Notes: a model not told the origin generated them from the letters alone. 64,000 bases of DNA from Candidatus Daviesbacteria bacterium (GCA_016187035.1 JACPKL010000001.1:14607-78606); one strand, 5' to 3'; positions 3,086 to 54,485 are shown, numbered from the stretch's first letter. Made by a program: numbers and translations.

Positions 3086-3122
3086 GTCATCGCGAGCGAT
3101 TAGCGTGGCGATCTTCTAGTGC
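3086..3122. repeat. Palindromic element family A, half copy
   Basis: GTCATCGCGAG-CGATTAGC-GTGGCGATCTTC. The left terminus plus core half is retained and the right half is absent. Confidence 0.65.
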
Positions 3123-3914
3123 CTTGATTATCTGTTCATGCACTACCCCATTTGAGGCTATAATATTTAACCTGTCTTTAGTCCAGTCTATTTCTTTACC
3201 CTCAAAATCAGTCACTTTCCCCCCTGCTTCCTCTATAATAACAGCCCCAGCTGCAAAATCCCAAATCCAGGCTTGATTTATCAAAGCATCCTGAATACCT
3301 TTACCAACTAAAACCATAGACATAGCAGCTGATCCAATTGAATAAACATGACCAACCTTATTAATTAGCGGTAAAATATACAGATTAGTTTTCAATGCTC
3401 TCTTTTCTAAATGCCCATAATCTAATATTACTCCCGCTCTATCTAGACTTGCCCTTTTACTGACAATTATTATCTTTTTGTTAACAAAAGCTCCTGATCC
3501 AACCTCAGCCCAGTATAAATCCTTACTTAACACATGATAAATCACTCCTAAAATTGGCTTATCCCCCTTAAGAAGACCAATTGAGACTGCAAAATAAGGC
3601 ATACCAATTGAGAAAGAAAAGGTACCATCCAATGGATCTATAACCCAGGTATAATCGCAGTTTCCTTGTATCCTTCCGCTCTCTTCTGCAATTATATTTG
3701 ACTCCGGAAAGTTTTGAGTAAGAATTTGAACAATTTTTTCTTCTGCTTGAAGGTCTGCCTGGGTAGTAAAATCGCTCTTATCATTATTCTTATAATTTAA
3801 TTTGTGTTCTTTGCCAAAATACTTAAATATGATTTCCCCAGCCTCCAAAGCAGCCTGTTTAGCAACTTTTAAATATTCATCTTTCATGGTGGAGCAATTG
3901 TACCACTTCTTCAT
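3087..3914 (-). CDS. suhB: Inositol monophosphatase family protein (SuhB-like)
   Basis: WVIDPLDGTFSF and WDFAAGAVIIEEAGG motifs. A more likely start is the ATG at 3887 (MKDEYLKVAK). The last ~11 codons (EDRHANRSR) and the stop codon lie in a half copy of palindromic element family A. Confidence 0.8.
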   Translation of the reverse strand: MKKWYNCSTMKDEYLKVAKQAALEAGEIIFKYFGKEHKLNYKNNDKSDFTTQADLQAEEKIVQILTQNFPESNIIAEESGRIQGNCDYTWVIDPLDGTFSFSIGMPYFAVSIGLLKGDKPILGVIYHVLSKDLYWAEVGSGAFVNKKIIIVSKRASLDRAGVILDYGHLEKRALKTNLYILPLINKVGHVYSIGSAAMSMVLVGKGIQDALINQAWIWDFAAGAVIIEEAGGKVTDFEGKEIDWTKDRLNIIASNGVVHEQIIKALEDRHANRSR

Positions 3915-4515
3915 CGCTTACACTCTCAAATTGATAATAAAATTGACCAACAGCCCGAAAATTCTGGGGTATATTTAAAGCTACCATTATATCAACTGCT
4001 TCTTTTATCTTCTCTGCAGTATCTTTGCTGATTACTGAAACAGCTAAAATTATTGTTCTAACCTGGTGCTTTTTTAGGTAATTTACAGCAGCCAAGGTTG
4101 TTGACCCTGTAGCAATTCCATCATCAGCAAGAATAACTGTTTTCCCTATCAGTTTAATTGGTTTCCTGCCCACTCTATAAACCTGTTCCCTTCTTTTTAC
4201 CTCTATTAATTCTTCTTCTATCTTTTCTCTTAAATCACCAATCTTAAATCTTAAATCTTTTAATAATTTTGTCTCCCATACAACCTCCCCGTCAGTATCC
4301 ACTGCTCCTAAAGCCAGTTCAGGCTGGTTAGGCGCTCCAATTTTTCTGGTTACAATAATATCCAAAGGCAGATTTAATTCTTTAGCTATTTCTGCTGCTA
4401 CCACTACCCCACCTCTGGGAATTCCTAACACTACTCCTCCCTGAAGCCCCCGAATTCCCCTAAGTCTCTTTGCAAGTAATATCCCGGCAGATCTCCGGTC
4501 TTTAAATAGCTTCAT
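3877..4515 (-). CDS. Phosphoribosyltransferase-family protein
   Basis: PRPP-binding motif VILADDGIATGSTTLAAV, plus GIPRGGVVVA. Contains a heptamer tract encoding DLRFKIGDLREK. Confidence 0.7.
   Translation of the reverse strand: MKLFKDRRSAGILLAKRLRGIRGLQGGVVLGIPRGGVVVAAEIAKELNLPLDIIVTRKIGAPNQPELALGAVDTDGEVVWETKLLKDLRFKIGDLREKIEEELIEVKRREQVYRVGRKPIKLIGKTVILADDGIATGSTTLAAVNYLKKHQVRTIILAVSVISKDTAEKIKEAVDIMVALNIPQNFRAVGQFYYQFESVSDEEVVQLLHHER
4229..4259. repeat. Heptamer tract CTTAAAT (in the PRTase gene)
   Basis: The 19-mer ATCTTAAATCTTAAATCTT is identical at 54283-54301 in the SucC-like gene. Both encode DLRFKI. Confidence 0.8.
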
Positions 4516-4519
4516 GAAT

Positions 4520-4640
4520 AATTTTTAATTTTAAGTTTTAAATTTTAATTGAATTTTAAATGTTTTAATGTTTTAAAATTTAATCATTTAGTCATTAAGA
4601 TTTGATTTTAAATTTAAAATTTGTACTTTAAAATTAATAC
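4520..4640. repeat. AT-rich intergenic array of degenerate heptamers (NTTTTAA-like)
   Basis: aatttta attttaa gttttaa attttaa ttgaatt ttaaatg ttttaat gttttaa ... between the PRTase start and the EndoQ stop. Confidence 0.55.
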
Positions 4641-4641
4641 T

Positions 4642-6021
4642 TTAATCAAATAACCCCAATTGCGGAATTTCATTCTTTTCCTCTTTTACAGATTCATCAT
4701 CAGACTGCCAAATTTTCACTACCCCATATACTCCATCATAACCAGGATCTATCACTAAATCACCGTCTCTGTCTTTTTTTACTCCTTCTGCAATTCTTTC
4801 TCCTGAGATTTTAGCTATTTCCTGAATGTCTACTTTGGTCAGAATCTTGATCTCACTACCTAAAGCAGTTGTTAGCTTTTTGTATTCATTTAAGACCTTC
4901 TGGGTTGTTGGAGCAGTATTAAAAGCCTCTGCTATTACCTGTAATAATGGTACTAACATTCTATATTCTGGCCTATCTAGGTTTTTGCTTTTAACCACCC
5001 CTTCTTCTTTAATTTCCCCTAACTCCTCTGCTCCTCTGTCTGCTAACTTCTCCACTCTTTCCATTACTCCTATTGTCAAACCTCTTTTGCAAACAGGACA
5101 GGTTGTTCCCTTAAGTTTTGAATCCTGCGGAGCATACTTAACATTACAATTTCTATGTCCTGTGTAGTGATACTTGCCTTCTTCAGGATAAAACTCAATT
5201 GTCCCAATCACTTTGTCATTGCGAGGGTCGCCGTGGCGACCCGTGGCAATCTCTTTTATTTCCAAGGAAGATTGCTTCGCTTTGCTCGCAATGACGGATA
5301 GTTGAGTAATAGCTCTCCATAAATTGTCATACGTAAACTCAGCCAGATCAAAAACTGTAGACTCCCTGCCTAGATTGGGTAAAGAATGAGCATCAGAAGA
5401 AGATAAAATTGATCTGTTGTCTAACTCTTTAATTCTCCAATTCATGGCCGGGGAAGAGCTTAAACCAGTTTCTATACCATAAACATATTCTGTTAAATCT
5501 TCAAAACACTCTTCCAAACTATCATAGCCGGATTCTGAACCAAATATGCCAAACCAGGGTGTCCAGGCATGCGCGCATACAAAAATAGCCTTGTCTGAAA
5601 CCTGCAAAGCTAAACTTAACAAATCTTTGGAAGATATTCCCACAATTGGTCTGCCGTCTGAGCCTAAATTAGCCCTTCTTGAAAGAAGTTCTTTTTGAAA
5701 CCTTTCTGCTGATGAGAAATCCGGTAAGTAAACTAAATTATGCACCCTTCTGCCCCTGCCTTTGTGAGAATAAATTGAAGCAATTTCTACAGTTAATAAA
5801 AATTTAACACTTGGATCTTTAGGATAAGTTAAAAAACCTGAGCCATCTTCTTTAAGCTGATTTTTAAGTTCTGTTAACCAAAGCGGATGCAGAAAATCTC
5901 CTGTACCTAATAAATCTATACCTTTCAGCTTACACCACTGCACCAAATTAGGAACATTCAGTTGTTGTGAACAAGCCCTGGAATACCTGGAATGAATATG
6001 CAAATCTGCAATATATGCCAT
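4642..6021 (-). CDS. Endonuclease Q-like PHP-domain nuclease with zinc finger
   Basis: MAYIADLHIHSRYSRA, GTGDFLHP, AHAWTPW, SSSDAHS, GKYHYTGHRNC..CPVCKRG and a C-terminal IDPGYDGVYG, collinear with archaeal EndoQ as I recall it. Carries an 81-bp in-frame palindromic element. Confidence 0.8.
   Translation of the reverse strand: MAYIADLHIHSRYSRACSQQLNVPNLVQWCKLKGIDLLGTGDFLHPLWLTELKNQLKEDGSGFLTYPKDPSVKFLLTVEIASIYSHKGRGRRVHNLVYLPDFSSAERFQKELLSRRANLGSDGRPIVGISSKDLLSLALQVSDKAIFVCAHAWTPWFGIFGSESGYDSLEECFEDLTEYVYGIETGLSSSPAMNWRIKELDNRSILSSSDAHSLPNLGRESTVFDLAEFTYDNLWRAITQLSVIASKAKQSSLEIKEIATGRHGDPRNDKVIGTIEFYPEEGKYHYTGHRNCNVKYAPQDSKLKGTTCPVCKRGLTIGVMERVEKLADRGAEELGEIKEEGVVKSKNLDRPEYRMLVPLLQVIAEAFNTAPTTQKVLNEYKKLTTALGSEIKILTKVDIQEIAKISGERIAEGVKKDRDGDLVIDPGYDGVYGVVKIWQSDDESVKEEKNEIPQLGLFD
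5215..5295. repeat. Palindromic element family A, 81 bp, in-frame in the EndoQ-like gene
   Basis: GTCATTGCGAG-GGTCGCCGTGGCGACCC-GTGGCAATCTC..GGAAGATTGC-TTCGCTTTG-CTCGCAATGAC. Translated as SVIASKAKQSSLEIKEIATGRHGDPRNDK. Confidence 0.9.
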
Positions 6022-6041
6022 TTAGCCGAATTTTACCACAA

Positions 6042-7829
6042 TCACCTTTTAAACTGCTGATTATACATCTCAATCAATTCTTTAACAGTGGTGGCATCTT
6101 CCCCTCTCTTATCAGCTTCCCTGAATTTAATCAATCTGGGAAACCTTAAAGCATATCCTGGTTCACTATTTTCTTTACCAGCAGTGTGCAGGGGCGAACG
6201 GGTGATTTCATCTGCTAATACTTCAATTACTATTTTAGGTTCAACCCAAACACTTGGAACTATTAAAGAATTAACTCTGGTCGGTTTACTTTGAACTTTG
6301 AACTTTGAACTTTGAACTTGTATCTCTCTCCATTCTTCATCTGATAAACCTGTTCCTATTTTTGAAACAGTCACGAATTCATCTTTTAACTCATCATAAA
6401 CACCAACCAACAAAGCACCTGCTCCAAACTCCGCTCTTTTACCCTTGCCATAAATATAACCTAACATTACACAATCTATAGTATCTTGTAACTGCCCTGA
6501 GGAATGCCTTTTTAATTTCACCCAGTTAAAATTTCTGGCTCCGGCTGAATAAACCGAAGTCACTCTTTTAACCACTAACCCTTCAAGATTGGCAGTTAAT
6601 GCTTCTTGCAGTAACTCCTCCAAACGGTTAACCTCAATCACTATTTCACCTGGTTGAGGAATTAAAATACCGTTTTCTTTAATAGTATCTTTTAAAATCT
6701 CCATCCTCGCTTTTAAAGGTTTATTAATCAAAGATTTACCATCTTTATACATAATGTCAAAAACAAATGCTTTTAAAGGTAAGCTTTTAGCCATTTCCTC
6801 TACCTTGTACTTTCTTCTTCTTTTAGTAGTTTCCTGAAATGGTAAAAACTCATCTGAGGCAGGATTATAAGCTAACGCCTCGGCATCTAATATAATTGTT
6901 TGAGCCTGAACCTGATTGTAAACTGCCTCAATCAGTTCGGGAAACATATGAGTTGTCTCTTCTAAATTACGGGAGAAAATTCTAACTACTTTTCCATCCT
7001 TATGCAGCTGTGTTCTAAATCCATCAAATTTTTTCTGAACATGAGCTTCTCCTTCAAACTTTTCCAAAATAGTTTTAGCATCAGGCAATCTTTCTGCCAG
7101 CTGGGATCTGATGGGCCTGCCTACTTTGACATCCAGTTTTTGCACTCCTGCCAAACCCTTGGTCCATAAAGTCTCCCCAATCAACCCTAAATCAGATGTT
7201 TTATTGTATGCTTCTTCTAAACTTGATCTTTGCTTGCGATCTCCTAATTTTGCCAAAGCAAATGCATCTAAAATGGTCGGATCACCAATTCCTAACCTGG
7301 ATACTCCCAAAGGAATCCTGACCAAATGTTTGCCAGATACCCCATTAACCTGTTTTAATAAATCAGCCAGGGTGGAAACTTTTTTCTCTACAGTTCCCTC
7401 ACCTTGAGTTTGTGCTATACCTCTTAAAATCTCAAAGACTTCTTTAACTGTCATTCCGAGGTCCGATGAAATCGGACCGTGGGAATCTTTCTTAGTTAAG
7501 ATTGCCACGTCGTCCCGATTTAATCGGGACTCCTCGCAATGACGTTGGGCAACCAATCCTAAATCCCCTACTTTTCCATATTCTTTTAAAACCTCTTCCC
7601 TTTCCATCCCATAAGCCCTGGCAATAGCAGCAGCTATCAGCTTCTCACTCATACCAATTTCGATGGCTTCATAAAAAGGAGCTACCCTGCCCTGGATTAA
7701 ATAACTCACATGTCCAATCTCCCCAACATTCACTTTAGAAAAAAGCTCAGCCAAAATATCAATTAAAGAGAGTCTGGAGGATGTCTGTTCTAATTTTTCA
7801 AAATACTCAGCTAAGGTGGAAAAAGTCAT
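6042..7829 (-). CDS. lig: ATP-dependent DNA ligase (archaeal/eukaryotic type)
   Basis: Adenylation motif I KFDGFRTQLHK, EGLVVK, and an OB-fold C-terminus. Contains one family-A palindromic element and a heptamer tract, both in-frame. Confidence 0.9.
   Translation of the reverse strand: MTFSTLAEYFEKLEQTSSRLSLIDILAELFSKVNVGEIGHVSYLIQGRVAPFYEAIEIGMSEKLIAAAIARAYGMEREEVLKEYGKVGDLGLVAQRHCEESRLNRDDVAILTKKDSHGPISSDLGMTVKEVFEILRGIAQTQGEGTVEKKVSTLADLLKQVNGVSGKHLVRIPLGVSRLGIGDPTILDAFALAKLGDRKQRSSLEEAYNKTSDLGLIGETLWTKGLAGVQKLDVKVGRPIRSQLAERLPDAKTILEKFEGEAHVQKKFDGFRTQLHKDGKVVRIFSRNLEETTHMFPELIEAVYNQVQAQTIILDAEALAYNPASDEFLPFQETTKRRRKYKVEEMAKSLPLKAFVFDIMYKDGKSLINKPLKARMEILKDTIKENGILIPQPGEIVIEVNRLEELLQEALTANLEGLVVKRVTSVYSAGARNFNWVKLKRHSSGQLQDTIDCVMLGYIYGKGKRAEFGAGALLVGVYDELKDEFVTVSKIGTGLSDEEWREIQVQSSKFKVQSKPTRVNSLIVPSVWVEPKIVIEVLADEITRSPLHTAGKENSEPGYALRFPRLIKFREADKRGEDATTVKELIEMYNQQFKR
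6288..6320. repeat. Heptamer tract ACTTTGA x4.7 (in the ligase gene)
   Basis: ACTTTGAACTTTGAACTTTGAACTTTGAACTTG encodes VQSSKFKVQSK. Confidence 0.85.
7450..7543. repeat. Palindromic element family A, 94 bp, in-frame in the DNA ligase gene
   Basis: GTCATTCCGAG-GTCCGATGAAATCGGAC-CGTGGGAATCT..AGATTGCCACG-TCGTCCCGATTTAATCGGGAC-TCCTCGCAATGAC. Translated as RHCEESRLNRDDVAILTKKDSHGPISSDLGMT. Confidence 0.9.
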
Positions 7830-7872: not shown

Positions 7873-8178
7873 ATGGCCGAATCTTCAGAAGGGAAATCCC
7901 CAATTATTCCTCCTATGCCAGAGATTTTAGATATTGAAAAGTTAAGTATCTGGATGAAGGATCATACAATAAGAGCTCCAAAAGGATATGCAGATATGAA
8001 ACGCCAAGATGGTACCCCCTTTAGTTTAGATGAGCAAATTGATGCTCATATAAAACAAACAGTAGACATTATTAACTTCAAGAGACAAAGAAATGATCCA
8101 AGAGAAACTTATCAAGAAATAGAACAAGGTATACTACGTTTTACTCAACCTGATGATCCTACCTCAAAAGGTAAGTAG
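7873..8178 (+). CDS. Hypothetical protein (101 aa)
   Basis: ORF only, no recognisable motif. Its 3' end converges on and overlaps the fic gene by 20 nt. Confidence 0.35.
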   Translation: MAESSEGKSPIIPPMPEILDIEKLSIWMKDHTIRAPKGYADMKRQDGTPFSLDEQIDAHIKQTVDIINFKRQRNDPRETYQEIEQGILRFTQPDDPTSKGK

Positions 8179-9235
8179 CTTTTTTGGTGCCGCCGATTTT
8201 TTTTATCAAGCCTTTTTTCCTTAAAAATTGTAACTCTCTTAAAACTGTATCATCTGAAAAATCAGGGAAGATCTTCCTGAAGTCTTTATTCTGCATGCTC
8301 TTATGACGATGGAGATATTCCATTATTATCATCTGCCTTTCATTTAATATGACCTGCTCCCCTAGTTTATCTTTAATCCTGGCATCAACAGAAATCCTTT
8401 GCACTTTTTCTTTAACCCTGTTTAACTCAATAGCAACACCTTCTGTAAAATATTCCAGCCAGGGAGTTAAATCCCTTTCATGAGTATCCAAAACCAACTG
8501 GTTAGATACTGCCTGCAAAGTTAAATAATACTTCATCGGATTTTCATCAAAATACTCCTCAAATGAGAAAAACTTTTTTATATCATATCCATCTAAAAAC
8601 ATTACTAAAGTAGCCACAGCCCTGGCTATTCTGCCATTCCCATCAACAAACGGATGAACTCTGGCTATTTCATAATGGATAATACCTGCTTTTAAGATGG
8701 GGTGGACTTGTTTCGCTTCATCAGAGTTGATCCAATTAACTAAATCTTCTATTAAATAAGGCACTTCCACTGCCGGAGGCGGTGTATAGGAAATTTGTCC
8801 TGTCTGGGAATTTTTAATAACCACTTGTCTGATTCTAAATTTCCCTGAAGACTGCTCTGGTAATATTTTCTCTGTAGTAAGCTTATGTATTTCTAAGATT
8901 GTTTCCAGGGTGAAGTTATATATACCAATTGAGCCTATTTGTACCTGAATAGACTCAACAAATCTTAAAACATTTCTATAATTAATGACTTCCTGAACAT
9001 CCCTGTCTCTGGCAACCACCTCAGTGCCTGCTAAAACATCCTGGACCTCTTCTTCAGATAAGGCATTGCCCTCAAGATGAGTGCCATGATGGATCGTTCT
9101 TTCAATAGCCTCTTTTCTGAATTTAGCTTCCCAGGCAGGCACCAAAGGAGCATGAATTATGACCTCTTTTGCAGCTTCTACAATACCTATGTCTTTTAAA
9201 ATCTTGTTGGTGATAGAATATTTGGGAACAAACAT
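8159..9235 (-). CDS. Fic/DOC-family protein (putative AMPylase) with C-terminal wHTH
   Basis: Fic motif HPFVDGNGRIARA, N-terminal Fic_N-like THLEGNALSEEEV, and a C-terminal winged-helix-like segment. Confidence 0.85.
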   Translation of the reverse strand: MFVPKYSITNKILKDIGIVEAAKEVIIHAPLVPAWEAKFRKEAIERTIHHGTHLEGNALSEEEVQDVLAGTEVVARDRDVQEVINYRNVLRFVESIQVQIGSIGIYNFTLETILEIHKLTTEKILPEQSSGKFRIRQVVIKNSQTGQISYTPPPAVEVPYLIEDLVNWINSDEAKQVHPILKAGIIHYEIARVHPFVDGNGRIARAVATLVMFLDGYDIKKFFSFEEYFDENPMKYYLTLQAVSNQLVLDTHERDLTPWLEYFTEGVAIELNRVKEKVQRISVDARIKDKLGEQVILNERQMIIMEYLHRHKSMQNKDFRKIFPDFSDDTVLRELQFLRKKGLIKKIGGTKKATYLLR

Positions 9236-9303: not shown

Positions 9304-9305
9304 CA

Positions 9306-9818
9306 TCACAAAATGGTATTAATGGTATTAGCAGTTAAACGATTGACTTCCATTACCACCACCCACTTCTCTATTCCCAAATCTTTAATATATAATTCCA
9401 ATTTATCAAAAACGTTTCTTTTGCTCACCCAAACACTTTTTTGTAAATGCTTAAAACCCCATTTTTTAAGATTTCTTCTAAATAAGTTTCTGATAATTCT
9501 TTTTTGTTCTGGAATATCAAATATTACTATCCTCCACTTTCCATCCCAATCTTTCTCTTCATAATTATCACTGATTAATTCCTTTCCAGCTTGAGTCAGT
9601 TTTATTATTACATCATCCTTGACTTTTGTCTGTTCAATCAACCCCCCTTCCCTTAGTCTTCTTAACGCTTGGGATAAAGAGGATTTCCTAAGCTCAGGGA
9701 TTCCGTATCTGTAACGGTAATGATGATAGGTAAAATCTTCTAAACGAACATAACCATCCACTGTTTTTTCCAATACCAGAAGAATCTTATTTGTCAAACT
9801 CTTTTTATAAACCCTCAT
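9306..9818 (-). CDS. Small PaaX-like regulator (N-terminal wHTH plus Cas2-like/PaaX middle domain)
   Basis: WDGKWRIVIFDIPEQKRIIRNLFRRNLKKWGFKHLQKSVWVS matches the PaaX/Cas2-fold pattern. N-terminal wHTH (LSQALRRLREGGLIE). Paralog at 25795-26310. Confidence 0.6.
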   Translation of the reverse strand: MRVYKKSLTNKILLVLEKTVDGYVRLEDFTYHHYRYRYGIPELRKSSLSQALRRLREGGLIEQTKVKDDVIIKLTQAGKELISDNYEEKDWDGKWRIVIFDIPEQKRIIRNLFRRNLKKWGFKHLQKSVWVSKRNVFDKLELYIKDLGIEKWVVVMEVNRLTANTINTIL

Positions 9819-25794: not shown

Positions 25795-26310
25795 TTATTG
25801 TATGTCCAGAGGACCATACTTTTCAGATTCAAAAACCCATACCCACTTCTCCACTCCTAAATCTCTAATATAATTGAATAATTTATCAGTAACGTTCTTT
25901 TTGGAAATCCAGACACTTTTTTGAAAATGTTTAAAACCCCATTTTTTTAAATTCCTTCTAAAAAGATCTCTTATCAACCTCTTTTGTTCTGGTATATCAA
26001 AAATCACTATTCTCCATTTTCCATCCCAACTTGCTGTACCATCACCAGTCAGCAATATCACTGTCTTACCTTCATCTGTCAATTTCAAAACCACTTGACC
26101 GATATCTTTCTTGTCAGTTTCTATCAGACCCTTCTCTTTTAACCTGGCAATAGCCTTAGATAAAGCAGATTTCTTCAGCTCAGGAATCCCATATCTGTAG
26201 CGATAATGATGGTAGGTAAAATCTTCTAAACGTACATAACCATCAATACTTTTTTCTAAAAAAGTCAAAAGGCTATAACTCAAACTTCCTCTTCTAACCT
26301 CCATACCCAT
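25795..26310 (-). CDS. Small PaaX-like regulator, paralog 2
   Basis: WDGKWRIVIFDIPEQKRLIRDLFRRNLKKWGFKHFQKSVWIS. Long identical blocks with 9306-9818 (YVRLEDFTYHHYRYRYGIPEL). Sits directly upstream of the ABC pair. Confidence 0.6.
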   Translation of the reverse strand: MGMEVRRGSLSYSLLTFLEKSIDGYVRLEDFTYHHYRYRYGIPELKKSALSKAIARLKEKGLIETDKKDIGQVVLKLTDEGKTVILLTGDGTASWDGKWRIVIFDIPEQKRLIRDLFRRNLKKWGFKHFQKSVWISKKNVTDKLFNYIRDLGVEKWVWVFESEKYGPLDIQ

Positions 26311-26364: not shown

Positions 26365-27225
26365 TTATATACTAAATATTGATAAAAGGACTATACCTAT
26401 TAAGGTAGTTACTACCCCTACGACTTGCTGCTTGGTGATAGGATCTTTAAATATAAGAAATGCCAGAAAGACAAACAAAGTAACTGAAGATGAAGCAATA
26501 GGGGCTACCAGAGAAACCAAACCCTCACTAATGGCTAAATTATAACTAATCCCCCCTATGTTAATTAGCAATGCAGCTAACAAAAGAGGGATAAATACTC
26601 TTTTGTCTGGTTTTATCAATTTGATTCTCTTTACCTGCATTACTATCAGGATGATAGGGAAAGATAACCAGGTGAGATATCCTGGCCAAAACCAACCAAT
26701 CTGCTTAATTGGTATTTTGATAAAAGTAAAATATACTCCCCATAAAAGCATAGCGACGATGGCATAGGGTATTCCCCGATCGAGTAAAATATTTTTATTT
26801 TTTAACTGCCTCAAATTTAAACTGCTTAGGATTATCCCTAAAAATATTATTGAGATAAAAATTGACTGACCAAGTGAAATCTTCTCCCCTAAAAAAATTA
26901 TTGATAATAAAACTGTAACCAAAGCAAACGAAGAAGCAATAGTCCCGACTACAGCAGCATTTCCTACCCGCAATCCTTCATAAAAAGCCACCAAAGGTAT
27001 TGGGCCCAAAAATGTGAGTATAATAATTATTATTAAAGACTCCAGAGTAAATTTATTCAAATCTGCAAGTGCAAAAGGAATGTAAAAACTAGATAATATC
27101 AATCCTATTACAGATAGATATAAACTAAAGCTATATCCCCCGATTTTCCTAGAAGTTTGCGCACCCAAAATATCCCCAATTCCCCAACCTAAATATGATA
27201 TAAATGCAAAAATTATAGCTAACAT
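26365..27225 (-). CDS. EamA/DMT-family transporter
   Basis: 286 aa with ~10 TM helices in two EamA-like halves. Confidence 0.75.
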   Translation of the reverse strand: MLAIIFAFISYLGWGIGDILGAQTSRKIGGYSFSLYLSVIGLILSSFYIPFALADLNKFTLESLIIIIILTFLGPIPLVAFYEGLRVGNAAVVGTIASSFALVTVLLSIIFLGEKISLGQSIFISIIFLGIILSSLNLRQLKNKNILLDRGIPYAIVAMLLWGVYFTFIKIPIKQIGWFWPGYLTWLSFPIILIVMQVKRIKLIKPDKRVFIPLLLAALLINIGGISYNLAISEGLVSLVAPIASSSVTLFVFLAFLIFKDPITKQQVVGVVTTLIGIVLLSIFSI

Positions 27226-28220
27226 TAGGAAGGCTTTGCTTGGCGGGCTAAGGAGACTTTTTTACTTCTTTCCAAGAAGGCTTGTTGGGCAAGCTTTACA
27301 TTTTCTTCTTTACCTGCCCAGGCAGTCAAAGCCTCATCCTGCAAGGCCCTGCCATAAGAGTAGGAAAGCTGCCAGGGACTACCTTCTATCAGATTTATTT
27401 CATATAAATTTGTGGTTGCTTCATCAGGTGATTGCCCCCCAGACAAAAAGACAATACCTGGCATTGGGGATGGAACTACCTTTTTAAATGTTTCCACTGT
27501 AGCTTTAGCTATCTCTTTTGCAGACGCTTGAGTTGGGCATTTTTTGCCTGAGATAACCATATTTGGTTTTAAAATCATCCCTTCTAAAATTACTTTATGG
27601 GCAGCTAGTCTTTCAAAAACAGCTTTTAAGGTTTTTTCTGTTACATCCTGGCAGACTGCCAAAGTATTATCAGCATCCATCAATACTTCAGGCTCTACAA
27701 TTGGCACTATATCAGCCTCCTGGCAAAGGCTAGCATATCTGGCTAAACTTTCAGCATTAGCCCATATACAAGTATCTGAAGGTATCCCCTCTACTATGGT
27801 AATCACCGCTCTCCATTTGGCAAACCTTGCTCCCATCTCTTTATACTCAGTCAATCTGTCTCTTAACTCATCCAACCCTTCAGTTACCTTTTCTCCGGGA
27901 AAATTAGCCAGTTTCCAGGCACCTTTATCTACCTTAATTCCAGGGATTATCCCTTTGCTTTCTAAAAACTGAGGTACAGGAGTTCCGTCTATACTTTGTC
28001 TGATGGTTTCATCATATAAAATCACTCCAGAAATATAGTCTGCTATACCTGAAGTGGTAAAAAGCATTGTTCTGTAGGCTAAATTAGTCTCTGGAGTAGA
28101 AGTTAAACCAATTTTGTCAAATCTTTTTTGAATGGTTTTTGAAGATTCATCTGCAGCTAAGATCCCTTTTCCAAGAGCCACCATAACCCGAGCTGTTTGT
28201 TTTAAGACATTTATATCCAT
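27225..28220 (-). CDS. fba: Fructose-bisphosphate aldolase, class I
   Basis: GILAADESSKTIQKRF and the Schiff-base lysine context MILKPNMV. Eukaryote-like class I length. Confidence 0.85.
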   Translation of the reverse strand: MDINVLKQTARVMVALGKGILAADESSKTIQKRFDKIGLTSTPETNLAYRTMLFTTSGIADYISGVILYDETIRQSIDGTPVPQFLESKGIIPGIKVDKGAWKLANFPGEKVTEGLDELRDRLTEYKEMGARFAKWRAVITIVEGIPSDTCIWANAESLARYASLCQEADIVPIVEPEVLMDADNTLAVCQDVTEKTLKAVFERLAAHKVILEGMILKPNMVISGKKCPTQASAKEIAKATVETFKKVVPSPMPGIVFLSGGQSPDEATTNLYEINLIEGSPWQLSYSYGRALQDEALTAWAGKEENVKLAQQAFLERSKKVSLARQAKPS

Positions 28221-28231: not shown

Positions 28232-28317
28232 GTCATTGCGAGGGATGTACCATACGGTACGTCCCGTGGCAATCTTCCTACTTGAGGTGGAAGATTCCTC
28301 ACTACGTTCGCAGTGAC
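28232..28317. repeat. Palindromic element family A, intergenic copy (86 bp)
   Basis: GTCATTGCGAG-GGATGTACCATACGGTACGTCCC-GTGGCAATCTTCC-tacttgaggt-GGAAGATTCCTCAC-..TTCGCAGTGAC. The right terminus is degenerate. Lies between fba and glpX. Confidence 0.85.
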
Positions 28318-37022: not shown

Positions 37023-39347
37023 TTAATTTTCCTCCGGCTTCATTTCTCCCCAAGTTTTGCCTGCTTTTAAATCAACTACCACTGGTACTGATAATTCTAG
37101 AGCATTTTCCATTTTTTCTTTGACCATTTTAGCAATCTGGCGGACTTGTGGTGAGCCTGCCGAACCATCACATTCAAACAAAAGCTCATCATGAACTTGA
37201 AGAATTAACTTACAGTTATCAGTTTTCGGTTTTCTGTTTTCAGATATTGGTTTGCCGGTTTTCTGTTTACCAGATTGACTGATAACTGATGAACTTTCAT
37301 CCGACGACTGACCACTGAGAACCGATAACTCCTTATCAATTTCCACCATAGCCTTTTTAATCATGTCAGCTGAAGATCCCTGAATAGGATGATTAATTGC
37401 TGCTCTTTCTCCTTGAGATCTGATCATTCTATTTGAGGCTTTTAGCTCCGGCATATATCTTTTTCTACCCCAGATAGTCTCTACATAACCATTTTCATAC
37501 CCAAAAGCTAAAGTTTGCTCCATCCATTCCCGTACTTTAGGAAACTGCTCAAAATATTCCACTATGTATTGACGGGCTACTTCATATTCCACTCCTAGTT
37601 GCCTGCTTAAAGCATGTGGACCCTGGCCATAAAGAGTAGCAAAATTCATGGTTTTCCCAACATTTCTTTGCTCATAAGAAACCTTTCCCACAGGTACTTT
37701 AAAGATCTTTGCAGCAGTGGCGCTGTGGATATCCAAGCCTGCTAAAAAAGCCTGTTTTAATCCTGGATCATCTGCCAGATGAGCCATAATCCGAAGTTCT
37801 ATCTGAGAATAATCAGCTCCAAATAATACTTTTCCCTTGGGAGCAATAAAGGCTTTTCTGACCTCTCCTCCAAGTGTACCCCTGATTGGGATATTTTGAA
37901 GGTTGGGGTCCTGGGAAGAAACACGTCCTGTGGCAGCTCCTTCCACATTAAAAGTAGAATGTATTCTGCCGTCTTCCCCAACTGATTTTGGTAAAGCGTC
38001 AATATAGGTGGAAACTAACTTGAAAAGTTGGCGGTATTCCAACAAAAGGGGTACAGCAGGGTGAGCTATAGATAATTCTTTCAAAGTCTCCTCATTTGTT
38101 GACCTGCCGGTTTTGGTTTTTTTAAAAACAGGCAATTTTAACTCGTCAAAAAGCACTACCTGCAGTTGTTTTGGGCTGTTCAGATTAAACTGATGACCTA
38201 TTTTAGAGTAAATTTCTTTTTCAATATTAGTTAATTTAGCTTTTAAATCGGTCCCAAGCTTATTTAAAAACTTAAGATTTATTAATATTCCTGACTTGGA
38301 CATTTTTTCCAAAACCGGCTGGACTTGGAGATCTAAATCAGTAGTGTCATTGCGAGGAAGTTTACCCTGAGCCGATTCGGCCTGAGGGCTCACGGCCTCG
38401 AAGGCTTGTCGAAGGGTGGCAATCTTCCCACTTGAGGTGGAAGATTCCCACGGCCCTTCGGGCCTCGGAATGACAGGAAAAGGTAATCTGTTTATCAAGC
38501 TCTTAAATTCCAATTCTTCGAATAATTCTCTTACCTTATTAGCATCGTAATCATGTACTCTACAAGCTGCTAAATCTAGCTTGACAGGGGCATTTGTATC
38601 TAGAGTAGCTAATTTTTTACTCATCACAGCTGATTCTGCTCCCTCGGCCAGTAACTTTTGCATTCTTTCGGGTAAGGTCTTCAAATTTTTAGGCAAGTAG
38701 ATTTTCTCAATAGAACCGAATTGGTGAATCAATTTAGTGGCTGTTACATCTCCTATACCAGCTACCCCTGGAATGTTATCTGAAGCATCTCCTGCCAAAG
38801 CTTTGTAATCTATCATCTGAGGAGGCATAAAACCATATTTAGCTACAAACTCCTCTACTCCATAAAGGCCCACATCCTGTAAAGTTTTTTTTGGCATTAA
38901 TACTTTAATATTTTCATCAATCAGCTGCATAATATCCCTGTCACCCGTGACTATTATAACTTCTAATTTTTGAGCTTTGAGCTTTGAGCTTTGAGTTGCC
39001 AAAGCGCCTATTAAATCATCTGCCTCATAACCTGACAGCCTAAACTCAGGAATATTAAAAGCTTTCACTACCTGATAAACCCTATCATACTGGGAAGATA
39101 AACCATCATCAGCCGGTCCCCTGGTAGCTTTATACTGAGTGTAAGCTTGATGCCTGAATGTTGGCCCTTTTTCATCCCAGGCAATGGCTAAAAAATCAGG
39201 TTTTAATTCATTTAAAGTCCGAAGAAGCATTGAGGAAAAACCATATACAGCATTAATTAACTCACCATAAGATGTGGAAAAAGGAGGAGTGGCGTGATAA
39301 GCCCGATGAAGTAAAGCATTCCCATCAACCAAAACCAAATGTTTCAT
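37023..39347 (-). CDS. polA: DNA polymerase I: 5'-nuclease plus polymerase domains, no 3'-5' exonuclease domain
   Basis: N-terminal 5'-3' exonuclease (VLVDGNALLHRAYHA, GDRDIMQL, GVAGIGDVTATKLI). Pol A motifs DYSQIELRI, RNVGKTMNFATLYG and QVHDELLFE. The two domains are joined by a translated 129-bp palindromic element. A second ~40-aa heptamer-derived insert precedes QVHDE. Confidence 0.9.
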   Translation of the reverse strand: MKHLVLVDGNALLHRAYHATPPFSTSYGELINAVYGFSSMLLRTLNELKPDFLAIAWDEKGPTFRHQAYTQYKATRGPADDGLSSQYDRVYQVVKAFNIPEFRLSGYEADDLIGALATQSSKLKAQKLEVIIVTGDRDIMQLIDENIKVLMPKKTLQDVGLYGVEEFVAKYGFMPPQMIDYKALAGDASDNIPGVAGIGDVTATKLIHQFGSIEKIYLPKNLKTLPERMQKLLAEGAESAVMSKKLATLDTNAPVKLDLAACRVHDYDANKVRELFEELEFKSLINRLPFPVIPRPEGPWESSTSSGKIATLRQAFEAVSPQAESAQGKLPRNDTTDLDLQVQPVLEKMSKSGILINLKFLNKLGTDLKAKLTNIEKEIYSKIGHQFNLNSPKQLQVVLFDELKLPVFKKTKTGRSTNEETLKELSIAHPAVPLLLEYRQLFKLVSTYIDALPKSVGEDGRIHSTFNVEGAATGRVSSQDPNLQNIPIRGTLGGEVRKAFIAPKGKVLFGADYSQIELRIMAHLADDPGLKQAFLAGLDIHSATAAKIFKVPVGKVSYEQRNVGKTMNFATLYGQGPHALSRQLGVEYEVARQYIVEYFEQFPKVREWMEQTLAFGYENGYVETIWGRKRYMPELKASNRMIRSQGERAAINHPIQGSSADMIKKAMVEIDKELSVLSGQSSDESSSVISQSGKQKTGKPISENRKPKTDNCKLILQVHDELLFECDGSAGSPQVRQIAKMVKEKMENALELSVPVVVDLKAGKTWGEMKPEEN
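37212..37330. repeat. Degenerate heptamer array with inverted ends (CAGTTATCAG / CTGATAACTG) in polA
   Basis: CAGTTAT CAGTTTT CGGTTTT CTGTTTT CAGATAT TGGTTTG CCGGTTT TCTGTTT ACCAGAT TGACTGA TAACTGA ... encodes LSGQSSDESSSVISQSGKQKTGKPISENRKPKTDN just upstream of QVHDELLFE. Confidence 0.7.
38346..38474. repeat. Palindromic element family A, 129 bp, in-frame in polA
   Basis: GTCATTGCGAG..(extra GC-rich hairpins CCTGAGCCGATTCGGCCTGAGGGCTCACGGCCTCGAAGGC)..GTGGCAATCTTCCCACTTGAGGTGGAAGATTCCCAC-GGCCCTTCGGGCC-TCGGAATGAC. Translated as VIPRPEGPWESSTSSGKIATLRQAFEAVSPQAESAQGKLPRND. Confidence 0.9.
38971..38995. repeat. Heptamer tract TGAGCTT x3.5 (in polA)
   Basis: TGAGCTTTGAGCTTTGAGCTTTGAG encodes SKLKAQKLE. 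Confidence 0.85.
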
Positions 39348-50214: not shown

Positions 50215-50226
50215 ATTTTCCTTTTT

Positions 50227-50464: not shown

Positions 50465-50851
50465 TCAAACTTTAGCGAACTGCTTTTCTAGCTTATCATC
50501 AAACGTTCTAAAATCTTCAACCTTGAGCTTCTTCGCATAAAGTAGGTTATAGCAATCTTCTATTTCTAATGTAGTGTTTCTGAATAAATGCAAAACCTCA
50601 AACAATAAATCTCGATTTTCAATATTAAGACTTAAGGTCAGTATCTTGTATAAAGCCTCAGTCAAACTATCTCTATCTTGACCATAACTAGCTTCCAAAA
50701 CCCAGGCTACCTCAAAAAAGACCACCACGGAAGTTATCAATTCCAATTCACCTCGAGCTGCTTTGAGAAATAGCTCTTTAGACTGCTGGTAATGAGAATC
50801 AATATCATTTAGCAAAAATCTAAGGAAGTAGTTTGTATCAACAAAAGTCAT
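50465..50851 (-). CDS. vapC: PIN-domain toxin VapC
   Basis: MTFVDTNYFLRFLLND, with acidic residues spaced as in a PIN domain. Overlaps the antitoxin by 4 nt. Confidence 0.8.
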   Translation of the reverse strand: MTFVDTNYFLRFLLNDIDSHYQQSKELFLKAARGELELITSVVVFFEVAWVLEASYGQDRDSLTEALYKILTLSLNIENRDLLFEVLHLFRNTTLEIEDCYNLLYAKKLKVEDFRTFDDKLEKQFAKV

Positions 50852-51200: not shown

Positions 51201-51950
51201 CTACCAAGGCAATTTTCTGGGTGAAGTCCCATCATATTCAATCTCTTCACTAGGTATTCTTCTGAATGGTTTTTCTCTGACCCATTCTTCAAATACATGG
51301 GCTATGAGTCCTACTACCCTACCGATTAAGAAAAATCCCTTGCCTAACCTGTAGTCAAAGCCCATATCAGAAATAACAGCTGCTATGGCTCCATCCACAT
51401 TAACAGGTATTTTTTTACCTTTCTTTTGCTCTAAAACCTGTTCTACTTTAACTGCCAACTCACAATATTCCCCAAAAAAACCTAATTTTTTAGCCTTTTC
51501 AAAAATCTGTTTAGCTCTGGGATCCTCCGTCTTATAAACTTTGTGTCCAAATCCAGCAATTCTGTCTCCTGCTGCTAATACTTTTTCCACCAATTTTTCA
51601 GCAGACAGGCCCATCTGCAGCAGTCTGGCACATTCTTCAATTGCTCCTCCATGATATTCCCCTATTCCTAATACTCCTGCTGCCACAGCAGCCTGCATGG
51701 GATTGCCGGCAGAGGCAGAATTCCTGGCATTAGTTGTGGATGGCGGACCCATGCCATTATCAATGGTGGAGATTAAAATAGCATCCAGCATAGCTTTCTC
51801 TTTTTCTGTAGGCAGCTCCCCTTTTAATTCCAGCCAGATAGCCGCTGTGAAGTTTACCTTATCCATCAACTCAGTCACTTTATAACCATGAATCAAAGTC
51901 TCCCCATCAACAATTCCAGCAATAGATGTTTTCCACTTTTTATCAGACAT
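51201..51950 (-). CDS. Short citrate-synthase-family protein (citryl-CoA lyase-like)
   Basis: GFGHKVYKTEDPRA citrate-synthase signature in a ~250-aa protein. ATG at 51950 (MSDKKWK) is preferred over the TTG at 51986. Confidence 0.65.
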   Translation of the reverse strand: MSDKKWKTSIAGIVDGETLIHGYKVTELMDKVNFTAAIWLELKGELPTEKEKAMLDAILISTIDNGMGPPSTTNARNSASAGNPMQAAVAAGVLGIGEYHGGAIEECARLLQMGLSAEKLVEKVLAAGDRIAGFGHKVYKTEDPRAKQIFEKAKKLGFFGEYCELAVKVEQVLEQKKGKKIPVNVDGAIAAVISDMGFDYRLGKGFFLIGRVVGLIAHVFEEWVREKPFRRIPSEEIEYDGTSPRKLPW

Positions 51951-51959
51951 AATAGTAAC

Positions 51960-52024
51960 TAGTAACAAGTACAGTAAAGGTAACAAGTTGAAATAAAAAT
52001 AACTTGTTACTTGTGCCTTGTTAC
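51960..52024. repeat. Long imperfect hairpin built from heptamer modules (ACTTGTT/ACTTGTG/CCTTGTT and complement)
   Basis: TAGTAACAAGTACAGTAAAGGTAACAAGT - tgaaataaaaata - ACTTGTTACTTGTGCCTTGTTACTA. Lies between the four-helix-bundle fragment stop and the ccl-like start. Confidence 0.7.
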
Positions 52025-52263
52025 TATTTCTGTGAAATGTATAACCTCCAAATTATATGTCCTGTTTCTGATCTTAGCAAGCAGACATCCTGAAATTCTG
52101 TTTCTTTTATTAATTTTCTCTGGTAAGAAAACTCAAGCAAATATTCCGTTTCTGCAAGCGAGCCTAAGGCTATAGATAAAAATCTATAAAATTCTTTCTT
52201 ACTGTTTCTAGCATGCCCTTCAACAATGTTTGTTGGAACTGATAAGCACGCTCTTTGTAGTTG
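52024..52263 (-). pseudogene. 5'-truncated four-helix-bundle protein gene (23S rRNA intervening-sequence protein family)
   Basis: Not in the ORF track (contains no Met). Own translation: QLQRACLSVPTNIVEGHARNSKKEFYRFLSIALGSLAETEYLLEFSYQRKLIKETEFQDVCLLRSETGHIIWRLYISQK then stop. Matches the family core RA..S...NI.EG..R.S.KEF..FL.IA.GS..E. It begins right after the SucD-like stop, and roughly 40 N-terminal codons are absent. Confidence 0.7.
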
Positions 52264-53169
52264 TTACTTGTCACTTGTGCCTTGTTGCTTTAGTAATTCT
52301 GGGATTTCATCTGGAGTTTTGGCAATAATAACTCCAGCTGCTTTTAAGGCTGTTATTTTTGATTTATAACTGCCCTTATCACCATAAACTATGGCTCCTG
52401 CATGACCAAGTTTTGTACCTTGGGGCAACTTTTCGGCAAATAACCCTGAGATAAAGGCTACCACTTTTTTGCTAAACTTACCACTTTTAATAAGCTGTGC
52501 AGCCTCTTCTTCATAAGTTCCCCCAATTTCTCCAAATAAAACTACTGCTTTAGTTTGCTCATCTTTTTCAAAGTCTACCAATAAATCAGCAAAGCTTGAC
52601 CCCACCAGTATATCTCCTCCAATACCCACAACAGTTGATTGCCCAATGCCATTTTTGGTTAGAATCCAGGATACCTCAGATGCCATTCCCCCGCTTTTAG
52701 AAATTATCCCCACATTTCCTTTAGAATAAACGCCTCTGGGATCATCCCCGCCAATTGAGCCCACTTTACCTATACCTGGAGAAATAATCCCAATAGATGA
52801 GGGGCCTACAATTCTCACTCCATTTTGTTTGGCTAAAGCTATGGCCTTGGCGCTATCTGCTATTGGAATATGTTCTGTTAAAACATTGATTAGAGGAATT
52901 TTGTTATTGATTGCCTCTTCTATTGCACCAAAGGCGGCAAAATTTGGCACAGCTATGAAAGAGGTATTAATCCCGGGGTGATTATCCAATGCTTCAGAAA
53001 CTGTATTATATACAGGTATTCCGGAAACCTCATATCCACCCTTACCAGGAGTTACTCCGGCTAAGACTTTAGTTCCATAATTCCTCATCTGTAAGGCTGC
53101 TTTAGAGCCTTCTTTACCAGTGATACCCTGGATTAAAACCTTAGTCTTTTCTGTTACTAAAACACTCAT
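52264..53169 (-). CDS. Succinyl-CoA synthetase alpha-subunit family protein (CoA-binding plus CoA-ligase domains)
   Basis: VLIQGITGKEGS, SKSGGMASEV and phosphohistidine loop LGHAGAIV. The C-terminal QQGTSDK is encoded by a heptamer module. Confidence 0.8.
   Translation of the reverse strand: MSVLVTEKTKVLIQGITGKEGSKAALQMRNYGTKVLAGVTPGKGGYEVSGIPVYNTVSEALDNHPGINTSFIAVPNFAAFGAIEEAINNKIPLINVLTEHIPIADSAKAIALAKQNGVRIVGPSSIGIISPGIGKVGSIGGDDPRGVYSKGNVGIISKSGGMASEVSWILTKNGIGQSTVVGIGGDILVGSSFADLLVDFEKDEQTKAVVLFGEIGGTYEEEAAQLIKSGKFSKKVVAFISGLFAEKLPQGTKLGHAGAIVYGDKGSYKSKITALKAAGVIIAKTPDEIPELLKQQGTSDK
52266..52286. repeat. Heptamer module ACTTGTC-ACTTGTG-CCTTGTT (3' end of the SucD-like gene)
   Basis: Third copy of the module. 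Together with 51960-52024 it brackets the truncated four-helix-bundle gene. Confidence 0.75.
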
Positions 53170-53202
53170 ATGAATTCTTTACTCCTTTTTTTATCTTCGT
53201 AG

Positions 53203-53252
53203 ATTTAAGATGTAAGAATTAAGAATTAAGATCTTAAATCGTAAATCATAAA
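53203..53252. repeat. Intergenic heptamer tract with central palindrome TTAAGATCTTAA
   Basis: ATTTAAG ATGTAAG AATTAAG AATTAAG ATCTTAA ATCGTAA ATCATAA ATC. Confidence 0.7.
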
Positions 53253-54485
53253 TCACTTAACTCCATATGCTAACTCCACCATGATTTTTGCAGTTGAAGT
53301 CATTGGAGTCTCCCTGCCAAATATATGAAAATCAAACCCTTCCTTACGGCCTACTCTTTTTAGCTCCTCAAAAGCTTCCTGATCCCTTGGCCCGCCTCTT
53401 CTTATCACAATTGGGTAAGCAGGCTTTGGTTTAATTTCCCTAAGCCCTTCTACAAAGCCCATTAAAGTTTCATAAATATCAGTAAAATTGGCTGTGCCTC
53501 CCACAAACCAACAACCCTTAAGTCCTGGTTTTCCTAGAACAATTTTAGTTAATTTTTTCAATTTTTCTCTGGGAGGGTTGCCTGAGTGTTCAGTATAATT
53601 AGCCGCCCTTCCTCCAAAAGTTACTAAAGCATCCATGTTAACTATAGACCCTCCACCTCCTGCAGCAATGACTGCAATGTCTCCATCCCGAAGGTCCCAA
53701 TAAACAGAGCCTGCAGTACCTCTGTGATCTCCTTCATCTATTTTTCTGGCTTCAATTTCAGCCTCAGTTGGGGGTCTGCCAAACAAATTTCTTTGGGGAA
53801 ATTTAATTTCCCTTCTAAAGTCTGCATCATCGTCCAAGATAACTTTGGCATCTAAAGCATAGACTCTCTTGTCATTGCGAGGTCCGCCCTGGCGGACCGT
53901 GGCAATCTTTCCATTTGAGATGGAAGATTCCTCGCTTATGCTCGGAATGACAGAAGTGGTAGAAACTACCAAAGGATTTATTTCTGCCAGTTCTAAGTCA
54001 TATTTTGTGAATACCTCCCAAAGCTCTGTAATAGTATCTGTAAATTGGACATAATGTTCAACGATCGTTGAAGGTAACGTCATATTTAGAGGATCAACAG
54101 GAAAACTCTCTGCGCCTTTTTCCTCTACTCCTGTCCCACCTTTGCCAAAAGTTAACACAGGTCCTCTTGTTGCTGTGGAGTATGAGAAAGACAGATAATA
54201 CTCCTTACCAACATCAACCATTTGTTCAACTAAAACCTTCTCCACCTTCTCATTGTTAATTGTCTTTGAAAGTAATTCTTCAATCTTAAATCTTAAATCT
54301 TCCATCTTCTCTACCACCAAAATCCCCCCAGCTTGTGCTCTTTTTCCAGACAAAACTTGAGCTTTCAAAACCAAAGGAAGTTTTAAGGTTACTTCCTGAT
54401 CTGCAGATTCTAAGAGTTGTGACTGGGGAACATTAATCCCACAACTTTTAAAAAGTTGTTTGCCTTCAAATTCGAAGAGTTGCAT
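53253..54485 (-). CDS. Succinyl-CoA synthetase beta-subunit / ATP-citrate-lyase beta-like ATP-grasp protein
   Basis: N-terminal ATP-grasp (MQLFEFEGKQLFKSCGI). C-terminal ligase-CoA-like IAAGGGGSIVNMDALVTFGGRAANYTEHSGNP. Carries an 81-bp family-A element in-frame between the halves. Confidence 0.75.
   Translation of the reverse strand: MQLFEFEGKQLFKSCGINVPQSQLLESADQEVTLKLPLVLKAQVLSGKRAQAGGILVVEKMEDLRFKIEELLSKTINNEKVEKVLVEQMVDVGKEYYLSFSYSTATRGPVLTFGKGGTGVEEKGAESFPVDPLNMTLPSTIVEHYVQFTDTITELWEVFTKYDLELAEINPLVVSTTSVIPSISEESSISNGKIATVRQGGPRNDKRVYALDAKVILDDDADFRREIKFPQRNLFGRPPTEAEIEARKIDEGDHRGTAGSVYWDLRDGDIAVIAAGGGGSIVNMDALVTFGGRAANYTEHSGNPPREKLKKLTKIVLGKPGLKGCWFVGGTANFTDIYETLMGFVEGLREIKPKPAYPIVIRRGGPRDQEAFEELKRVGRKEGFDFHIFGRETPMTSTAKIMVELAYGVK
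53871..53951. repeat. Palindromic element family A, 81 bp, in-frame in the SucC-like gene
   Basis: GTCATTGCGAG-GTCCGCCCTGGCGGAC-CGTGGCAATCTTTCCATTTGAGATGGAAGATTCCTC-GCTTATG-CTCGGAATGAC. Translated as SVIPSISEESSISNGKIATVRQGGPRNDK. Confidence 0.9.
54285..54301. repeat. Heptamer tract CTTAAAT x2.4 (in the SucC-like gene)
   Basis: See 4229-4259. Confidence 0.8.

Follow-up and report, generated by a model that had tools for sequence, protein, structure and literature searches.

In-frame palindromic repeats, probably of the CGTC-tagged REP superfamily, in housekeeping genes of a Candidatus Daviesbacteria genome

The stretch of DNA considered here (hereafter the window) is 64,000 nt of a Candidatus Daviesbacteria genome (Microgenomates, candidate phyla radiation (CPR); G+C 37%), and it carries one family of short palindromic repeats, four full copies of which lie inside genes for housekeeping proteins. 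The first full element, an inverted dimer of 81 bp on the plus strand (5215..5295), is found within the gene for a homologue of endonuclease Q (EndoQ; 4642..6021; PDB 5zb8, E=4e-47, no Pfam family matched), where it is read as VIASKAKQSSLEIKEIATGRHGDPRND. The second, of 94 bp and in the opposite orientation (7450..7543, minus strand), lies within the gene for an ATP-dependent DNA ligase (6042..7829; Pfam, with a PDB match to a Sulfolobus ligase) and yields the peptide RHCEESRLNRDDVAILTKKDSHGPISSDLGMT. An intergenic copy of 86 bp, its right terminus decayed, occupies 28232..28317 (plus strand). A longer element of 129 bp (38346..38474, plus strand), with extra nested hairpins in its left half, sits in the gene for PolA (37023..39347; 5'-nuclease and polymerase domains with only a short linker between, from Pfam and a PDB match to Taq polymerase). 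The last, again of 81 bp (53871..53951, plus strand), lies in a gene for an ATP-grasp and citrate-binding subunit (53253..54485; Pfam), called SucC-like in a preliminary description of the sequence, and encodes VIPSISEESSISNGKIATVRQGGPRND. A sixth locus (3086..~3118, plus strand) is a singleton resembling a repetitive extragenic palindromic (REP) element, GTCATCGCGAG-CGATTAGC-GTGGCGATCTTC, and overlaps the 3' end of a gene for inositol monophosphatase (IMPase; 3087-3914). The four genic hosts and the IMPase gene are all encoded on the minus strand.

That these six loci share 11-bp termini, as the preliminary description had it, was borne out on recounting: with at most one mismatch, the window contains ten matches to GTCATTGCGAG where shuffles lead one to expect 0.39, a second permitted mismatch brings in the decayed right terminus of the copy at 28232 as well, and all 11 window termini, read from the sequences, show the tag [C/T]GTC. 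The four genic copies are indeed open and in frame within their hosts, and the peptides quoted for them, including VIPRPEGPWESSTSSGKIATLRQ...GKLPRND in PolA, are right. Two points required amendment. Firstly, the locus at 3086 had been counted among six copies; it is a single half-unit, and not a truncated full element, giving five full elements and one half-unit in the window. Secondly, the ligase copy is read in another phase, as described, but it also runs in the opposite direction from the rest, its GTGGCAATCTT being found on the minus strand.

The anatomy of the elements was established by comparison with copies from other genomes, collected from species-representative genomes with the pattern GTCATTSCGAG-N8-38-GTGGSAATCTT (at least 120 loci) and modelled by an nhmmer profile and direct covariation counts, half-units and dimers being too variable in length for a covariance model. 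A half-unit consists, in order, of the unpaired [C/T]GTC tag, the 5-bp stem strand ATTSC, GAG, a variable GC hairpin or short spacer, (C)GTG, GSAAT and a CTT tail, and a full copy (the ‘nested palindrome’ of 81-129 bp) is two such half-units in inverted arrangement, tags outward. The conserved central hairpin noted earlier, in which GTGGCAATCTT... pairs with ...AAGATTSC, was found in all five full copies and is the pairing between both tails and the internal blocks. Each of the five has a multibranch fold that its terminal stem closes off (z -3.4 to -8.6 against shuffles), and the dimers are mostly heterodimers with ATTGC on one side and ATTCC on the other, which explains a G·G mismatch in the terminal stem. 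The base preceding GTC is T in 94 and C in 47 half-units, 141 of 156 in total. The variable base of the terminal block invariably pairs with that of the internal block (125 G/C, 8 C/G and none mixed, although the search pattern permitted mixing), and a looser pattern recovered five complementary stem variants (TTG/CAA, TTC/GAA, TCG/CGA, TTA/TAA and TCC/GGA), with 266 of 278 cases complementary, the TTG/CAA and TTC/GAA counts being partly fixed by the selection of the first 120 loci. Presumably the core of the Neisseria dRS3 repeats, ATTCC...GGAAT, equals the minor stem variant of the present family; those repeats border mosaic elements between genes and are used by phages as sites of integration. 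Within the conserved internal-loop bases GAG and (C)GTG lies either a variable hairpin of 8-59 nt or a spacer of 6-8 nt, and these inner inserts, 124 distinct sequences among the 156, fold better than shuffles (mean z -1.8). The tail reads CTT or CTC, although the search pattern fixed TT after GSAATC and the tail was therefore not freely sampled. The possibility that the GAG...GA motif resembles a K-turn was set aside, its strands being unsuited to one. No Rfam family matched at the elements, either at gathering thresholds across the whole window or at E values up to 5 between positions 3000 and 7700.

Ortholog alignments show these segments to be additions to their host proteins: EndoQ, the ATP-grasp protein, the ligase, PolA and the IMPase tail differ from close orthologs at exactly the stretches concerned. 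The EndoQ insert falls between the stretches that align with PfuEndoQ (chain residues 4-224 and 237-385) and is missing from the closest orthologs (63-71% identity), while a VIAS...RND insert of the same family occupies the same site, in the same phase, in three distant ones (46-51%). On a rough neighbour-joining tree the four EndoQ carriers are scattered, each with insert-less nearest relatives. In the ligase, the element stands in place of a linker of ~11-13 residues in orthologs, and other palindromes are found at the same spot in other lineages (e.g. RHSGKRSASRIDSGQARMT). The PolA element occupies the linker that joins the 5'-nuclease domain to the polymerase domain; this linker is hypervariable and in many orthologs holds diverse palindrome-derived peptides. 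In the ATP-grasp family, some 95 of the 120 orthologs have ...EINPLVVDK-xG-KVWALD... in a tight turn (D-K-x-G-K) where the window protein has 27 additional residues; about 25 of the 120 have differing inserts there, several of them bearing the marks of palindromic families other than this one. The ATP-grasp protein as modelled by AlphaFold has a sole long low-confidence segment (residues 179-204; predicted local distance difference test score (pLDDT) about 31 and below 50), which lies within the 27-residue insert and between the strands at 164-175 and 208-210. The EndoQ, ligase and PolA inserts lie at domain boundaries. On these alignments the segments are to be read as lineage-specific insertions in permissive or variable linkers, and not as ancestral sequence. 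The opposite view, that they are ancestral, fast-evolving linkers of low complexity which look like repeats through shared composition, draws on the fact that every ortholog has a variable linker at the host site, but has next to nothing left of its probability: the 11-bp termini and 11-bp internal blocks are common to unrelated genes and to the intergenic copy, the window copies match a profile built from other phyla (see below), and the closest orthologs, in refuting it, have no such segments.

Two junctions, those in EndoQ and in the ATP-grasp gene, have close orthologs that reveal the empty site; there the insert is exactly GTCATT...AATGAC (81 bp), and no target-site duplication is present at either. 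The flanks (CTATCC|...|AAAGTG in EndoQ, ACTTCT|...|AAGAGA in the ATP-grasp gene) reveal no specific target motif, the only regularity being a T or C before GTC that belongs to the element's own tag; the flanks around the window copies are AT-rich.

Several further observations concern the host sites. Just upstream of the EndoQ insertion site, the codons for a conserved ...(Q/E)AIM... are CAAGCAATCATG or GCGATAATG (loci L196 and L197 and the window), with AAGATTGCC downstream in L197, and both resemble internal blocks of the element, GAAGCAATC and AAGATTGCC; this likeness may be microhomology or coincidence. The ‘empty’ ligase linker of many relatives (L121-L200, around residues 96-110) is of low complexity (SKFKVQSSK, SKIKNQKSK, RNSKFEIRNSK), and may derive from another AT-rich repeat and not be the true ancestral state. 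PolA holds a second, unrelated insertion (window 37213-37330, residues ~672-712), in which an inverted repeat CAGTTATCAGT/ACTGATAACTG encloses 54 nt that include two occurrences of a direct repeat, CGGTTTTCTGTTT; the encoded peptide is ...SSVISQSGKQKTGKPISENRKPKTDNC..., and the insertion coincides with a gap in the alignment to Taq polymerase (between Taq residues 772 and 777). The ATP-grasp gene (53253-54485) clusters with one for a CoA-binding/CoA-ligase protein (52264-53169) and another, at 51201-51986, whose product ends in a citrate synthase C-terminal domain. From its sequence, the 51201-54485 cluster of this CPR genome has the appearance of a split ATP-citrate lyase set or one for citryl-CoA synthetase/lyase.

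The two remaining loci differ in their setting. At 3086, the half-unit codes for the final eight codons of IMPase (DRHANRSR) and the stop codon; orthologs without this tail end in ...ILEALK[x] and a stop, about seven residues earlier. This half-unit is of an ATCGC/GCGAT stem subtype and, read from the sequences, contains a run of 29 bases (GTCATCGCGAGCGATTAGCGTGGCGATCT) that recurs unbroken in the reverse-complemented right half of an element from another Daviesbacteria genome (L076). The copy at 28232 occupies the 108-bp spacer between genes for a glpX-type fructose-1,6-bisphosphatase (28329-29318, minus strand), whose stop precedes the copy by 11 bp, and a class I aldolase (27225-28220, minus strand), whose start follows it by 11 bp. 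It had been described as stop-free in at least one frame and is in fact open in three of six; no terminator-like site was found at this copy.

Outside the window, the same 22 specified bases of the search pattern occur in at least roughly 20 bacterial phyla among the matches listed, counted by record titles. These include Bacillota, Bacteroidota, Chloroflexota, Planctomycetota, Alpha-, Beta- and Gammaproteobacteria, Desulfobacterota, Spirochaetota, Fibrobacterota, Synergistota, Nitrospirota, Elusimicrobiota, Omnitrophota, Melainabacteria and several CPR groups, and an exact GTCATTGCGAG...GTGGCAATCTT element is present in Rickettsia tamurae (L042). Again among the matches listed, dimers make up 70 of the 128 elements in other genomes, many loci having a single half-unit, and only six of the 70 full elements lie inside a long open reading frame (ORF), such that the family is mostly intergenic there. 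An nhmmer profile trained solely on 135 half-units from other genomes picked out the window's five full copies, with no other match above noise: six window half-units were matched at E=2e-9 to 1e-6 and three more in part, while the 3086 singleton was not detected by it. The family in the window is thus homologous to copies in other phyla. The core pattern is rare in viral contigs, with 45 stretches among 2.9 million contigs; phages are capable of carrying it, yet it resides chiefly elsewhere. One IMG/VR contig, 3300009708_000104 (52 kb; L202, L221), has four copies of the core pattern. Among the Bacteroidales, single half-units lie ~15-35 bp upstream of the ATG at four loci (L005, L026, L039, L069), the genes beginning MKK... 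or MKR..., and a role in the 5' untranslated region or close to the promoter is possible in Bacteroidota.

The closest published counterpart is the class of CGTC-tagged REPs described by Di Nocera, De Gregorio and Rocco (2013, PMC3733652), which have an unpaired CGTC (often TGTC or CCTC) tag, an 8-9-bp stem starting with AT, a 4-5-nt loop and an unpaired tail of 3 nt, mostly CCA. They form mainly head-to-head dimers with variable spacers, but also singletons, and were sorted into families CGTC-1 to CGTC-4 in five phyla, the CPR not among them, with no dedicated transposase (PMC3733652). Interspersed in many copies and mostly intergenic, they also occur as in-frame genic dimers encoding 20-30 residues, notably in R. 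conorii, and the genic copies are often in replication and repair genes, PolA and ligase included (PMC3733652). The window family agrees in its [C/T]GTC tag, its AT-initiated stem, its inverted dimers (five, with one singleton) and its want of a transposase in the window or near the 120 foreign loci, and canonical members with an 8-bp stem, GTC-ATCCTGAA-loop-TTCAGGAT-CTx, are present in Daviesbacteria relatives. Peptides listed for CGTC REPs (VIPAKAGI, SFPRKRES, LDSRFRGND and WIPWSNHGMT; PMC3733652) recur as signatures in Daviesbacteria PolA and ATP-grasp orthologs. The window family is, on this comparison, a structural variant of the CGTC-tagged REPs, and its core pattern occurs in at least roughly 20 phyla as against the five of the 2013 survey. 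As for simple CGTC singletons, the window has two matches with 2.2 expected, and this candidate was rejected.

The preliminary description had cited the Rickettsia palindromic elements (RPEs) as a precedent for in-frame insertion, and the relationship appears closer than analogy. RPE-4 has been equated with CGTC-4 and RPE-6 with CGTC-1, Neisseria dRS3 also being placed in CGTC-1 (PMC3733652), and the features of the CGTC superfamily are shared by the window elements, whose exact core pattern occurs in R. tamurae. According to work on R. japonica (PMC3767692), ATGAC ends are common to RPE-4, -6 and -7, different RPE groups are found at the same site in orthologs, and RPE-1, -2 and -3 are separate in origin. 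The window elements resemble these as palindromes ending in ATGAC, in frame and surface-exposed in housekeeping genes of a reduced genome, and in the use of one ortholog site by different element groups; they differ in host lineage (Patescibacteria) and in stem sequence. The suggestion that such elements were uncharacterised in this type of genome may hold, as literature searches found no published description from CPR or Patescibacteria, and full-text searches with the terminus sequence returned unrelated primer matches only; the class of element and the phenomenon, however, are published for other phyla.

Whether the genic copies are translated, excised from the transcript or selected to be open can be addressed through their reading frames. 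Each of the four is open in just one of the three sense frames, and that one is the host's; three of the four have lengths divisible by three. A larger sample came from relatives, namely metagenome loci of Daviesbacteria type that surround the ligase gene and total 1.0 Mb, and whose gene content is accordingly biased to repair genes. Relatives and window together contain 30 GTCAT...ATGAC palindromes, compared with three in shuffles, two of the 30 (L140 and L161, of identical sequence) being chance matches within ordinary coding sequence and some being duplicates from overlapping contigs. About 21 distinct palindromes (4 from the window and 17 from relatives) lie inside long ORFs and all are open in the host frame, their hosts including ligase, EndoQ, Fpg, RecF-like proteins, carB, a glycosyltransferase and NAD(P)H-hydrate dehydratase. 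Seven distinct non-genic palindromes lie between ORFs, and those flanking ORFs that were scanned with Pfam are distinct, complete genes (e.g. carA|carB and phosphoribosyltransferase|Pth). Among the copies checked in the window and relatives, no conserved gene was found to be split by an out-of-frame or stop-containing copy.

Removal at the RNA level, one of two options offered by the preliminary description, would have the element act as an intron or processed hairpin, its terminal stem joining the ends so that the proteins never hold the extra residues. The strong terminal stem and compact fold (z -3.4 to -8.6) lend it some appeal, as does the location of elements in essential genes, and insertions in rRNA genes are known for CPR bacteria. 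Excision would, however, lift the constraints of frame and stop codons, under which every one of the 4 window and 17 relatives' genic palindromes appears to stand, and genes split by stop-containing copies were not found among the copies checked; translation is favoured over excision because the genic copies keep frame where, under RNA removal, most should break it. The marks of a spliced intron, namely a recognisable intron RNA family and freedom from frame and stop constraint, were both missing, as Rfam families gave no match, and the same family is mostly intergenic in other phyla. Excision is therefore considered very improbable. The other option, an element selected to be translatable, is not supported either: among the matches listed, the mostly intergenic foreign copies have 31% of frames open against 25% in shuffles, and their lengths do not favour multiples of three (19, 18 and 28 for remainders 0, 1 and 2). 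As the family is scarcely more open than expected from its composition, the openness of genic copies is attributed to a survivorship filter, and the copies in the window are most likely translated as harmless floppy loops, as far as reading frames can tell.

With respect to mobility, the preliminary description had proposed something akin to a MITE (a miniature transposable element with inverted repeats). A classical MITE would be a deletion derivative of an insertion sequence (IS), moved by a DDE transposase recognising the 11-bp terminal inverted repeats, and the elements are indeed small and numerous, end in inverted repeats and lie between AT-rich flanks. Target-site duplications are nonetheless missing from the junctions in EndoQ and the ATP-grasp gene, and no transposase domain, nor a Y1 domain, was found in the ~60 window ORFs scanned with Pfam, the sole recombinase among them being XerC/D-like (61788-62690). 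When 1,845 ORFs from the 120 foreign loci were clustered, no protein family proved enriched beyond generic ABC ATPases, GT2 proteins and two-component systems; an autonomous IS with the same termini was not found in the window or the fetched loci; and the single half-units at many loci are the behaviour of REPs, not of MITEs. A MITE origin is thus credited with a slim chance at best. ERIC (enterobacterial repetitive intergenic consensus) elements, Coxiella QMITE and the Anabaena MITEs are likewise small, non-autonomous repeats that occasionally extend or interrupt an ORF in frame, but they come with target-site duplications and/or a related IS, and the window elements do not. A further parallel is offered by GTAG REPs and REPINs, which come with RAYT transposases and in which an inverted doublet of REP hairpins is the mobile unit, target-site duplications are absent and recognition of single-stranded hairpins is presumed; the tag in the window is, however, CGTC or TGTC and not GTAG, and neither the window nor the surroundings of other copies yielded a RAYT or IS200-type gene. 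As there is neither a target-site duplication nor a linked transposase, hairpins in single-stranded DNA and an enzyme acting in trans are suggested.

Taken together, these observations make it probable, with fairly good confidence, that the six loci are palindromic REPs of the CGTC superfamily which spread selfishly and whose in-frame survivors are translated as disordered loops. The earlier proposal of a selfish-type palindromic repeat in frame in housekeeping genes is to that extent upheld by ortholog alignments and frame analysis. The repeat would spread as non-autonomous selfish DNA, probably mobilised through hairpins in single-stranded DNA by an enzyme supplied in trans, and in a gene-dense CPR genome many insertions would strike genes. 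Those that survive would be multiples of three bases, have no stop in the host frame and lie in a permissive linker between domains or a surface turn, there to be transcribed and, we infer, translated as disordered and presumably neutral loops of 27-43 residues.

It is worth noting that several points weigh against this explanation. Translation is deduced from frame statistics alone, and the ligase copy, at 94 bp from terminus to terminus, has a length not divisible by three, so that its boundaries or an accompanying indel are at issue. Homology to the canonical CGTC families would rest on shared tag, stem start, dimer form and co-occurrence, and the structures differ, the window elements having a 5-bp outer stem, an internal loop and an inner hairpin in place of 8-9 contiguous base pairs, and apparently a CTT tail in place of CCA. 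Occupancy of the same site in different lineages is not accounted for by random insertion and selection alone. Finally, three of the four genic hosts are repair or replication enzymes (rough, length-weighted p about 0.008, from four insertions only), a bias which hints at something beyond neutrality.

The last two points invite the view that the elements have been co-opted and kept by positive selection because they modulate host proteins in repair and replication, or their mRNA, for instance by translational pausing at domain boundaries. EndoQ, ligase and PolA make up three of the four genic hosts, the same bias has been noted for REPs in other phyla, and the same sites are occupied in several lineages; but the inserts at one site differ wholly in sequence, length and subfamily between lineages, the closest relatives go without them, the modelled ATP-grasp insert is disordered, and the relatives' loci, collected around the ligase gene, are skewed to repair genes in their content. 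Co-option is accordingly judged improbable, with a slim chance at best. Somewhat less doubtful, though still an outside possibility, is that CGTC-type REP dimers are aimed at particular positions instead of inserting at random and being filtered. This notion draws on EndoQ, where the same family holds the same site and phase in four lineages with insert-less nearest relatives, and on the ligase, PolA and ATP-grasp genes, each with one site taken by different subfamilies in different lineages. If true, it would amount to a novel homing or replacement process, guided by structure or sequence and operating without a linked transposase or target duplication, with a possible link to replication or repair, and could account for a near-identical core of 22 bases across roughly 20 phyla.

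For selfish palindromes surviving in frame, then, both the element class and the in-frame genic phenomenon are already described; what is new is the host lineage, the nested-hairpin structural variant, the wider spread of a near-invariant core and clear, repeated occupancy of the same sites. The Rickettsia phenomenon of ‘selfish DNA inside protein genes’ is thereby extended to the CPR, another lineage of very small genomes, and the repeat superfamily is far more widespread than published (at least roughly 20 phyla against five in 2013). Such inserts inflate and blur CPR protein families and produce spurious small ORFs, and they indicate where PolA, ligase, EndoQ and similar enzymes have permissive loops. 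CPR metagenomes offer many independent insertion events in which to study REP movement, recurrent sites and the targeting of repair genes.

Other features of the window are recorded for completeness. Three PIN-domain proteins (29315-29692, 50465-50851 and 62995-63414) and a Fic/DOC protein (8159-9235) are encoded. Two paralogues of ~170 residues (9306-9818 and 25795-26310) have a PaaX central Cas2-like domain with weak Cas2 matches, no CRISPR context being visible. The tRNA genes comprise one for tRNA-Ile (anticodon TAT) and two for tRNA-Met (CAT), at 63415-63487, 56560-56634 and 58123-58196.

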